From NCBI RefSeq assembly GCF_057098645.1, contig NZ_CM169472.1: a stretch of DNA of 64,000 nt. One strand, 5' to 3'. This document shows, in pieces, positions 30,001 through 33,000 of this stretch; positions within the stretch are counted from its first letter, which is position 1; every line of letters starts with the position of its first letter. The position numbers are program-made.

Positions 30001-33000
30001 ATGCTCTTAATACGAGTTTCGCTCAAATTCCCGGCCTCAACAATTTGCCAGGCTTGATCCAGTGAAGGGTACCGGCTGACGCTCTGCTGCAACTCTTCTG
30101 ACCAGGTTTCGGATGGGCTGATGTGCTTATCAGGGCCGAAACTCTCCCATGCGCCGGACGGTAATGTTTTCCACTCAGTGAGTTTGGGAACGTGGCACAG
30201 TAGCTCTGTTTTGTGCAGACATTCTCCGCCCGGAAATACCAGGGTTTGTTGCTCATCATTAAAACGGGTTGCCGTGCTGAGTACCAGTGTTTTGAGCGGT
30301 CGCCCTTCCAGTGCGGCAGCAGTGGCCTTATGGTGCCCGTCGAGCAGAACGCAGAGATAGGAATCAGGGAGATACCAGGCCAAAGCGCGGGCGTCCGGTT
30401 TATCGCGATAAAACGTCACACGCTCAGGATTAAAATGTGATGGCGGCTGTCCAGGAAGAAGAAAACAGGGGGCGGTGTTACAGAAATAGCAATATTCAGG
30501 ATCCCAGACGGCAACGGTTGCCGGATTACTGGCGCTATGGTCCGTTGCCGCCCAAAAGAAATGCCCATTGCCATCCGTCGGGTAAAGTTCACGATCTTCC
30601 AGCAGATAATAGCCATCAGCAAGGCATGAGAACAGCGGTGTAAGCGCGGCAAAAGCGTCCGTAAAGCCAGACCATGGGCGATTCCAGTTTTCGAGAGCAG
30701 ACAAAAACCGGGCGGCTCCCTGTTCATCATCCGCAAAACCGCTGTAGACAAATTCCGCGCAGGTGGGGCAGCCGGCCTCGGACCAGAAACGTATTACCGG
30801 GACATCCTGCCAGCAGAGTGAACGGATAAGCCCATAAGGGTGCGGATCGTAAAGCACACATTGACGCAGAAATCCTTTACCGGACTTCACCGAAAAAATG
30901 ACGCCCGCAGCGGTATTTTTCAGCAGACGTACTTCAGGTTTTCGAAAGGGAAAAAGCATGACCACTCCTTAGCCGAATATTCAGAACCCTGAACTGTGCC
31001 AGAAAATTACGCTGGTGACTATTGCTCTGAAAATGGTAACGGTATCCTTACCCATTAATCCCCGTTTGCACCGAAAGAATATGCTGCAAACTTTCTACCA
31101 TTATGCGCCCCGATTGAAATAAGCCTTCCTGGATTTCATTGTTAACATTCACAGCGTGAACCAGGGAGGCTAATAATACTACTTGCAAGAAGGCAAAAAT
31201 AAACGCACCGATAATCATAATATGCGTCAGGGGTATTTTTCTTTGCTCCTTCATTTTAAATAACCCACGAACTGGCCTTCTTTCATTAAGGCGACTTTTC
31301 CTGTGTGATGATAAACAATGACGTTATACAGACCTGACTGATAAACAGTGGCATCTTTATTGTCTTCATCAATTGCACATAATGAATCATTGAGATAAGC
31401 AAAGTTTTTACTGCTCATTCTAAAGGTCATGCCAAATCCTTTATAAATGGCTTTCTTTGCCGCCTGGGCGTGTTGTGCGGCTTCTGCATTTTTAAATGCC
31501 TGTGCCTCGGATGCACTTAAAATAGCCGCCTGACGCTGCTGTTCTGCGAGGTAACAGGTGTCATGACTGACGCCCTGCGCCTGGCAATCTGCGATGCGGG
31601 AAGTGGGTGAACTACAGCCAGCCAGTAATATAACCGCCAGCAGGGAAAACGATTTAATGGAGCTATTCATCATTGTTAACCTTAAATAAACTGCGGAATA
31701 TTGCTATACTCGTCATACTTCAAGTTGCTGCAACTCGAATTATTTAGAGTATAATAAGAAATTGCTATTAAAATTAGAACGAATACCCCACGCCGACACC
31801 CGCGCCGAAATCAGATTGTGTATCCGCAGAGACTCCCGCTTTAATTACCGTATGAATTCCAGCATTAAACGAAGCACCGACAGATACCGCAGATTCATTG
31901 TTGAATGTACCCGCCCCGGCAGACACCATCATAAAATCACCTGTCTTAACTTGAGGCTGTGAAGCAATAGCGACGGCTGACGCAATACCCGCATTAGCCT
32001 CTTTACGGTTATCTTCCACTTCGTGTTTCAACGAACTGAAGTTGTTATTGAGCGAATTGATTTGCTGGCTGTTATCTGCAACACGTTTTTGCGTGTTTGT
32101 TAACTGCTGGTGCGTTTGGGCAGAATCTTGTGTCAGACTTTCGATTTGCTCATGTGCCTGGGCCGAGTCTTGCGCAAGGTTTCGAATTTGTTCACCGTAT
32201 TGCACGCTATCGATTTGCTGTTGCGTCGCGACATTGGAAGCCAGTTCATTAATTCTCTGCTCCTGATCAGCGGTTGAACGTTCATTGGCTTCATTTTGCG
32301 CCGTCAGTTTGGCATTAATCATCTTTTGATAATGCGCAGTTGACTGGGGATCGCCGATTGCAGCGACCGTTTTTTCTGTGGCTGCGATCTGCTTCTGTTG
32401 CTCTGTAATCTGCGTTTGTTGGTCTTCAGACTGTGATTGTTGCGCATCAGCAGTGGCGGCAACGGTTTTTTGCGTGGCAGTGATTTGTTCCTGCTGTTCG
32501 GTAATCGCCGTACTGTTTTTTTCAATCTGGTTTTTGTTGTCGCTTACGACACCGGAAAGTTTCTGGCCATTCATCAACGCGGTATTAGCGTTCTCGTTGG
32601 CATGATCTGCACTTGCTTTAACATCTGCGACATCTTTCTGAGTATCAGCAATAGCTCCCTTGTTCGCATCAATTGCAGATTGCGCAGTGGTAAGCGCTTT
32701 TTTGGCGTCATCTGCATTTGCCGCCGCAATGCTTGCGATATTGTGTGCATTCTGAATGGCGGTATCTTGCGCCGCGTCGCGATCTGCCTGGTTTTTATCG
32801 GTGACAGTGCTGTCAGTCTGTACGGCTGTACTGGTGGGGTAAATATTATCGCCTGTCTGTGGGTCCATATATCCATGAGAAAACAGGTAATCTTGCGCGG
32901 CTTCTGTATTACCTGTCCGAATCATGAAGCGATTGATTTTTTGATCGATTTCATCATGAGACATACCTGGGTGAATCGCTGTCAGTTCTGTCGCTGCCGC

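Follow-up and report, generated by a model that had tools for sequence, protein, structure and literature searches.

The locus described here raises the question of how the stalk of a putative bacterial adhesin comes to differ in length between strains, and of whether the allele at hand is itself prone to such change. We analysed a window of 64,000 nucleotides (nt), by which we mean the whole stretch taken from contig NZ_CM169472.1 of RefSeq assembly GCF_057098645.1; it matches the chromosomes of Escherichia coli O145:H28, and it contains a gene for a YadA-like trimeric autotransporter of 436 amino acids (aa) that is 100% identical to its counterparts in O145 genomes, where RefSeq names the product ‘YadA-like family protein’ (WP_000843739.1). 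An earlier reading made from the sequence alone (the sequence-only reading) had proposed that near-identical direct DNA repeats, at 32000-32600 of the window, allow the length of the adhesin stalk to vary in frame by slippage or recombination. The answer that we consider quite probable is a different one: the stalk of the window allele consists of diverged modules, named B and C below, in a contracted allele, and the locus changes length by rare repeat-mediated recombination.

Anatomy and repeats of the window allele

The gene was divided into the following parts, the first of them taken from our list of open reading frames (ORFs):

31774..33084, − strand: YadA-like trimeric autotransporter gene, 436 aa (RefSeq WP_000843739.1)
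33016..33084, − strand: predicted signal peptide, aa 1-23, MKSVKLSLLAVVVATIVSPSAFA then DD (read by eye from the sequence)
32815..33015, − strand: small N-terminal passenger domain, aa 24-90 (67 aa; invariant columns in alignment A1)
31957..32814, − strand: stalk, aa 91-376, predicted to be alpha-helical, with heptad periodicity and all of the repeat modules (AlphaFold2 and self-score)
31777..31956, − strand: YadA-like membrane anchor, aa 377-436 (Pfam PF03895, E = 1e-10, 42 bits)

We conclude that the flagged stretch is, as predicted from its sequence, the coiled-coil stalk of a small trimeric autotransporter (type Vc secretion, YadA family). The label ‘adhesin stalk’ is structurally justified by the anchor, by the anchor's matches to solved relatives, by the helical model and by the heptad periodicity. 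YadA_anchor is the sole domain that Pfam finds in the 436-aa protein (the cut-off for this family is 22.7 bits), and the anchor region matches the solved anchors of AtaA (phmmer E = 1.6e-6) and Hia (9vnj and 2gr7). An AlphaFold2 monomer, which we used for secondary structure only and not for a fold search, places helices at 91-241 and 245-373, with a break only at 242-244 (model numbering without the initial Met), and the heptad self-similarity of the stalk reaches a score of 86 at an offset of 7, vs a 99th percentile of 78 in shuffles. On inspection, the predicted signal peptide has a basic N-end, a hydrophobic core and an AFA cleavage motif (AFA before DD), and it is conserved across alleles; the N-terminal domain that follows (aa 24-90) is kept in all allele types and is modelled as short helices at 26-68, with a predicted local distance difference test score (pLDDT) of 73-80. 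Aa 24-376 match no Pfam or NCBIfam family, and none of the established head and neck types (YadA head, Hia/HIM, Trp-ring and others) was found there; many trimeric autotransporters have a head of known type, but membership does not require one. Matches to SMC, Rad50 and helix-rich NCBIfam models (17-27 bits vs cut-offs of 270-1087) were rejected as coiled-coil artefacts. Both adhesive activity and assembly as a surface homotrimer are putative.

Both of the peptide pairs named by the sequence-only reading are present in this stalk. The first, ITEQQ..KTVAA, comprises ITEQQEQITATQKTVAA (aa 194-210, 32455-32505) and ITEQQKQIAATEKTVAA (aa 226-242, 32359-32409), which are identical at 13 of 17 residues; the second, EQIxxLxQDSAQxH, is identical at 9 of 14, and in the best register its DSAQ units are EQIRNLAQDSAQAH (aa 298-311, 32152-32193) and EQIESLTQDSAQTH (aa 312-325, 32110-32151), followed by a partial QQLTNTQ. 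Each repeat has just two copies, and those of the ITEQQ pair are not head-to-tail: their starts lie 96 nt apart, with a 15-aa spacer between the units. A gapped Smith-Waterman self-alignment of the stalk proved to be dominated by composition (shuffle mean 94), and we replaced it by ungapped diagonal scoring with BLOSUM62. The diagonal at an offset of 32 aa scores 90, above the best score (85) of 1000 shuffles that preserve the composition of the stalk, and that at 14 aa scores 83, above the 99th percentile (78) of the shuffles. At the DNA level, the ITEQQ units agree at 38/51 nt (74.5%), with a score of 37, while 500 codon shuffles gave at most 34; the 42-nt units agree at ~27/42 nt (about 64%) in the best register by our own reading, or at 24/42 in the register of the sequence-only reading, and they are not among the top DNA diagonals of the stalk.

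Searches for repeats of a higher grade had a uniform outcome. Tandem Repeats Finder (TRF), at a minimum score of 30, gave no row in the gene; a repeat-family search with a 7-nt seed returned only chance-like families of 12-20 nt, among which the diverged units did not appear; and no exact direct repeat of the gene is longer than 10 nt. High-identity head-to-tail copies, of the kind that define a variable-number tandem repeat, are present in other alleles of this locus and not in the window allele. The peptide pairs of the sequence-only reading have thus held up, both as sequence and above shuffles, whereas the near-identity that it ascribed to their DNA has not, the units being only 57-75% identical: no significant tandem-repeat score was obtained for the window allele, and length polymorphism was found at the locus (see below). 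We suggest that the peptide repeats are two surviving copies of module B and two of module C, the products of old duplications whose DNA would since have diverged to 64-75% identity.

Alignment with other alleles and self-comparison yield this map of the modules and junctions in the stalk:

32506..32784, − strand: module A, single copy, aa 101-193 (DRDAAQDTAIQ...IDANKGAI...HANxNANTALMNG...NKNQIEKNS; allele alignment)
32612..32634, − strand: junction of a 369-nt (123-aa) insertion or deletion (indel), a 23-nt tract GATGTCGCAGATGTTAAAGCAAG (allele DNA alignment)
32513..32544, − strand: 32-nt tract AGCGACAACAAAAACCAGATTGAAAAAAACAG (longest exact repeat in the 579-aa allele of L003)
32410..32505, − strand: module B copy 1, aa 194-225, ITEQQEQITATQKTVAA plus TADAQQSQSEDQQTQ (allele alignment)
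32445..32457, − strand: junction of a 60-nt (20-aa, TGDVKTAARYQSMINALQTA) indel, tract GCCACTGCTGATG (allele alignment)
32254..32409, − strand: module B copy 2, full length, aa 226-277, ITEQQKQIAATEKTVAA IGDPQSTAHYQKMINAKLTA QNEANERSTADQEQR (self-comparison)
32210-32219 and 32141-32150, − strand: pair of 10-nt exact direct repeats, AGCAAATCGA on the coding strand, 69 nt apart (longest exact repeat in the allele)
32089..32193, − strand: module C, two 14-aa units, EQIRNLAQDSAQAH and EQIESLTQDSAQTH, plus the partial QQLTNTQ (self-comparison and alignment)

Length differences between alleles

When lengths were compared across strains, in-frame polymorphism was found at the flagged modules: three in-frame indels, of 42, 60 and 369 nt, separate alleles with an identity of at least 97%, and each lies at a repeat module and has direct repeats at its boundaries. 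The largest of these distinguishes the 579-aa alleles, whose extra 123-aa module (369 nt) opens with GATGTCGCAGATGTTAAAGCAAG and is followed by the same 23 nt; this tract occurs twice in the 579-aa allele of L003, 369 nt apart, and once in the window allele. AGCGACAACAAAAACCAGATTGAAAAAAACAG is likewise shared without mismatch by both A copies of the 579-aa allele, and at this 32-nt tract the alleles P0042 and P0048 (456 and 422 aa) appear to have undergone an independent deletion of 123 aa, with the junction placed from their proteins and the parental DNA. Module B copy 1 is 60 nt shorter in the window allele than in the 456- and 579-aa alleles: the latter have 20 additional aa (TGDVKTAARYQSMINALQTA, 60 nt) right after the first ITEQQ..KTVAA unit, between GCCACGGGTGATG and GCCACTGCTGATG. 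The tract GCCACGGGTGATG, which opens the extra 60-nt segment, matches GCCACTGCTGATG of the window at 11 of 13 positions, the first five exactly. The 422-aa allele is without exactly one 14-aa DSAQ-type unit (42 nt). By the same placement from proteins and parental DNA, the 556-aa allele P0034 would lack exactly the 23 aa (69 nt) that lie between the window's 10-nt repeats, and a further deletion of 49 aa (147 nt) would lie between the 10-nt repeats CTATTGCTGA. Protein clusters add variants of 456, 530, 556 and 559 aa. All of the repeat-associated indels are multiples of three, and the locus does not therefore have the character of a phase-variable, simple-sequence contingency locus.

These differences belong to a much wider series. 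The adhesin gene was found in 1412 of 5426 complete E. coli genomes (about a quarter), its length class is lineage-specific, and its orthologues range from 338 to 840 aa across the species. The stalk of this Escherichia family is made of nested modules: A, of 123 aa (369 nt); B, of 38-52 aa (114-156 nt); and C, of 14 aa (42 nt). In other alleles, module A is present in 0-5 copies. The modules also occur as tandem arrays:

717-aa allele (L008): module A, period 369 nt, 2.9 copies, 98% identity, TRF score 2091
497-aa allele: module B, period 114 nt, 2.5-2.8 copies, 84-88% identity
717-aa allele (L008): module C, period 42 nt, 2.0 copies, 78% identity, detectable by TRF

In 351 complete genomes, a 369-nt probe maps to 1-5 places each; the series reaches full ORFs of 840 aa, in which there are four A copies, and two loci that carry two vs four A copies have shared segments that are 97.4-99.0% identical. 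At the other end of the range, the O157:H7 allele is 338 aa long and is without module A. The longest exact repeat within an allele measures 9-11 nt in the 338-, 422- and 436-aa alleles, 32 nt in the 579-aa, 44 nt in the 497-aa, 160 nt in the 594-aa, and 369 nt in the 717- and 840-aa alleles, and it rises with length variability.

The repeat-poor alleles are correspondingly uniform. The gene is exactly 1311 nt long in 25 of the 26 O145-lineage genomes, and the exception (L010, strain RM12522-C8) is a G4-to-G3 frameshift in the anchor, at 31914-31917 of the window, which is not a repeat event. In that strain the gene is annotated as frameshifted, which may reflect either a genuine pseudogene or a sequencing error in the homopolymer. 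The full-length 338-aa allele is present in 1028 genomes; all 43 of the full-length rows that we sampled are 1017 nt long and align as one piece, even those with identity as low as 95.8%. Change in copy number is not seen within the O145 lineage; it is seen among alleles that are at least 97% identical and, for module A, across the 351 genomes. For the sequence-only reading this means that stalk variation at the modules is borne out across strains, in frame, and that the readiness to slip which it implied for the window allele is not observed; that allele appears effectively frozen in length, as judged from the genomes compared.

We hypothesize that stalk length shifts in frame by the gain or loss of whole modules, for which unequal homologous recombination, or replication slippage between repeat copies, would be the likely mechanisms. 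The rate appears to follow the extent of exact identity between copies: with an exact repeat of 160-369 nt there are from 1 to 5 A copies, and alleles with an exact repeat of 10 nt or less (the window allele and the 338-aa O157 type) would be length-stable. The window allele would then be a contracted form, as set against a 579-aa allele to which it is 97-99% identical, having one A module (369 nt) and 60 nt of module B copy 1 fewer. We infer that deletion is the likelier direction of this event, because identity between the two A copies is only ~68% in the 579-aa allele, so that the long form would not be a fresh duplication, and because the 20-aa piece and both C units are found in every other allele type, O157 included. 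At ~0.15 nm per helical residue, the length of the stalk would set the reach of the N-terminal domain from the outer membrane.

The long alleles have a further peculiarity, in that their annotation in RefSeq by the Prokaryotic Genome Annotation Pipeline (PGAP) is too short. In place of a frame that runs for 579 aa from the conserved MKSVKL start, a coding sequence (CDS) of 379 aa is given, and open frames of 840 or 594 aa are reduced to 349 aa; the loci with such starts are L002 (4001-5740), L003 (3182-4921), L006 (3108-5630), L011 (1466-3988) and L012 (2204-3988). Because these start calls truncate the CDS, the repeat modules of the long alleles are left unannotated.

Competing explanations and known parallels

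Several points weigh against our reading and are best considered together. Its rates and its mechanism are both drawn from standing variation. For the 69- and 147-nt deletions, the junctions were placed from protein sequences and not from the DNA of the alleles concerned. The AlphaFold2 monomer is of low confidence (pLDDT 60.5; predicted template modelling score, pTM, 0.29). Several module lengths (20, 38 and 123 aa) are not multiples of seven, and a simple heptad-register rule, tried on the indel sizes (14, 20, 23, 38, 49 and 123 aa), fits only 14 and 49 aa. As regards an adhesin function, deletion of the whole islet from O157:H7 left adherence to HeLa and Caco-2 cells unchanged (PMC5826968). 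Finally, the indel states occur in all combinations among close alleles, and in L001 there are three extra single-nucleotide polymorphisms (SNPs) beside the 42-nt junction; some length differences may have been imported by inter-allelic recombination rather than having arisen in place.

These last observations lend themselves to a broader alternative, which we judge unlikely: that the locus is a mosaic, in which diverged alleles or segments are swapped between lineages by homologous recombination and the gain or loss of repeats within the gene is minor. It would accommodate not only the combinations of indel states and the SNP cluster in L001, but also the second A copy of the 579-aa allele, which resembles another allele family. 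It also fits a comparison of two sister lineages: the 436-aa allele of O145:H28 and the 338-aa allele of O157:H7 (L005 4640..5656) align only in their 3' half, at ~80% identity, and the flanking lipoprotein and 120-aa proteins are identical between them, which suggests that this allele difference is an allelic replacement by recombination. On the other hand, every indel among near-identical alleles is repeat-bounded, and two different perfect tracts have been used for the same 369-nt loss; the loci with two and with four A copies are near-identical in the segments that they share; and the A copies of a single gene can share as much as 98-100% of their sequence, which points to recent expansion in place and so counts against a mosaic.

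The claim closest to that of the sequence-only reading, namely that near-identical DNA tandem repeats make this stretch a slipped-strand hot spot, with frequent, reversible and contingency-like switching of length in frame, we hold to be highly improbable. The visible peptide repeats, the length variants among close alleles and the high-identity arrays in other alleles speak in its favour. For the window allele, however, the idea is largely refuted: TRF finds nothing in the gene at a score of 30, the units share 57-75% of their DNA with a longest exact direct repeat of 10 nt, and the single departure from 1311 nt among the 26 O145 genomes is a homopolymer frameshift elsewhere in the gene. Least credible of all is the notion that there are no true repeats, that the similarity reflects a biased Q/A/T-rich heptad composition and that strain length differences are unrelated to it: although the offset-7 self-similarity (86) is as high as the repeat scores, the gapped self-alignment is composition-dominated and the 42-nt units are not significant at the DNA level, the offset-32 match and its DNA counterpart exceed all 1000 composition and all 500 codon shuffles, respectively, the same units form TRF-detectable arrays in orthologous alleles, indels excise exactly one unit, and homology at the level of units is seen in the cross-allele alignment.

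Rare, repeat-mediated change in module number, as we prefer to read this locus, has ample precedent: repeat-driven variation in stalk length is well known in trimeric autotransporters, of which the window locus is one more example. What its natural series adds is a tie between the length of exact repeat identity and the stability of stalk length. The repeats of Cha, from the Haemophilus cryptic genospecies, are reportedly highly identical tandem units with spontaneous variation within a strain. The units in the window differ from them in being 64-75% identical, TRF-negative and monomorphic in their lineage; only other alleles of the locus have arrays that are like those of Cha. BadA of Bartonella henselae is a protein of about 3000 aa with neck and stalk repeats of known domain types, whereas the protein described here spans 338-840 aa, matches no known family of necks or heads, and has modules that are purely helical in the model.

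As to likenesses, Cha is also a trimeric autotransporter; according to PMC9704523, which cites Sheets & St Geme (2011, J Bacteriol 193:329), it has an in-frame variable number of tandem peptide repeats, and the repeat number in the passenger or stalk changes the exposure of the distal domain. BadA (PMC8859334; in general terms, PMC9704523) has a modular coiled-coil stalk whose repeat number differs between isolates, with a conserved membrane anchor and distal domain, as is the case here. Periscope proteins are similar in that an in-frame change of repeat number alters the projection of a distal domain from the surface (PMC8201768, PMC9704523). The window protein has a helical trimeric autotransporter stalk, which the definition of that class excludes (PMC9704523), and it does not have the monomeric, single-chain stalk of highly identical, independently folding tandem domains by which periscope proteins are recognised.

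The islet, the GmrA report and neighbouring genes

The adhesin gene sits in a small islet between ybbJ and cueR (O-island 29 of O157:H7), and published deletion primers, once mapped onto the O157 locus, identify it as the positional orthologue of O157:H7 Z0639 (‘gmrA’). Yang et al. (2018, PMC5826968) described Z0639 as GmrA, a cytoplasmic protein that activates transcription and binds the fliA promoter, and this role is repeated in two reviews (PMC10877973 and PMC8565820). The lambda-Red primers in the supplement to PMC5826968 show that the ‘gmrA’ deletion corresponds exactly to the 338-aa YadA-anchor CDS (L005 4640..5656), the product of which has a signal peptide and a YadA_anchor match of 45 bits. 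The window protein and GmrA are encoded in the same islet, beside the same flanking lipoprotein and 120-aa genes, and have in common the signal peptide, N-terminal domain, modules B and C, and anchor; the O157 allele differs in being without the A module and 98 aa shorter. No DNA-binding Pfam or NCBIfam family was found in the window protein or its Z0639 orthologue. The only DNA-related matches are to SMC/Rad50 coiled coils and are far below the cut-offs; in our view, these may be the origin of the ‘putative DNA-binding domain’ of GmrA. Given the YadA anchor and the lack of a DNA-binding family, the proposed activation of the fliA promoter seems hard to reconcile with the architecture of Z0639. 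Its sequence describes a probable secreted fibre, anchored in the outer membrane, and the reported mechanism merits re-examination.

Bearing in mind the motility phenotype in O157, we also considered a more speculative proposal, which is distinctly doubtful: the stalk-length series (0 to 5 A copies, 338 to at least 840 aa) would be an adaptive ‘ruler’, and that phenotype would reflect envelope signalling. Such a ruler would extend the N-terminal domain past the O-antigen or capsule layer, or past a giant type I-secreted adhesin encoded nearby. If true, this would turn a published transcription factor into a surface fibre that feeds back on flagellar expression.

A promoter scan found one weak site upstream of the adhesin gene (33206-33178, − strand), and the count of sites is not above that expected from shuffles. 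No earlier description of this adhesin's repeats was found in the literature, where a search for named trimeric autotransporters of E. coli beside cueR gave only the neighbouring type I secretion locus. An O157-type allele in strain F8111-1SC3 (L007 2866-5220) is split by insertion of the IS4-like element ISVsa5.

The other members of the islet, which also contains a 68-aa ORF, are as follows:

31251..31673, − strand: 140-aa lipoprotein gene, downstream of and co-oriented with the adhesin gene, orthologue of z0638 (ORF list and locus comparisons)
33450..33812, strand opposite to the adhesin gene: divergent 120-aa gene
29736..30965, − strand: 409-aa ORF between the 68-aa ORF and cueR (WP_000898667.1, hypothetical in O145)

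The lipoprotein gene is conserved in all of the loci examined. Its product has no Pfam family and no sequence match to any solved structure; we considered it as an autotransporter-assisting lipoprotein of the SadB type and set this candidate aside, there being no solved-structure match below E = 0.5. The 409-aa ORF is absent from L001-L003, L005-L009, L011 and L012, and is confined to O145 among the loci examined; its product has no Pfam or NCBIfam match.

Upstream of cueR are a type I secretion system and a gene for a giant BapA/SiiE-like adhesin. In the window, this giant gene is split into ORFs of 1240 aa (5216..8938) and 5665 aa (8996..25993), both on the + strand, and the annotation of O157 likewise gives it as frameshifted. 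Within it, at 21730-22671, a unit of 318 nt is repeated in tandem (3.0 copies, 71% identity). Another tandem repeat, of 33 nt and 2.9 copies at 73% identity (34636..34732), lies in the SPFH-domain gene qmcA (34370..35287, − strand), where it encodes repeats of the type ILKAEGExQS. In strain VCSW5 (L006 1-1738), qmcA is N-terminally truncated and a recombinase-family gene adjoins it, which suggests that an integrated element lies beside the islet in that strain.

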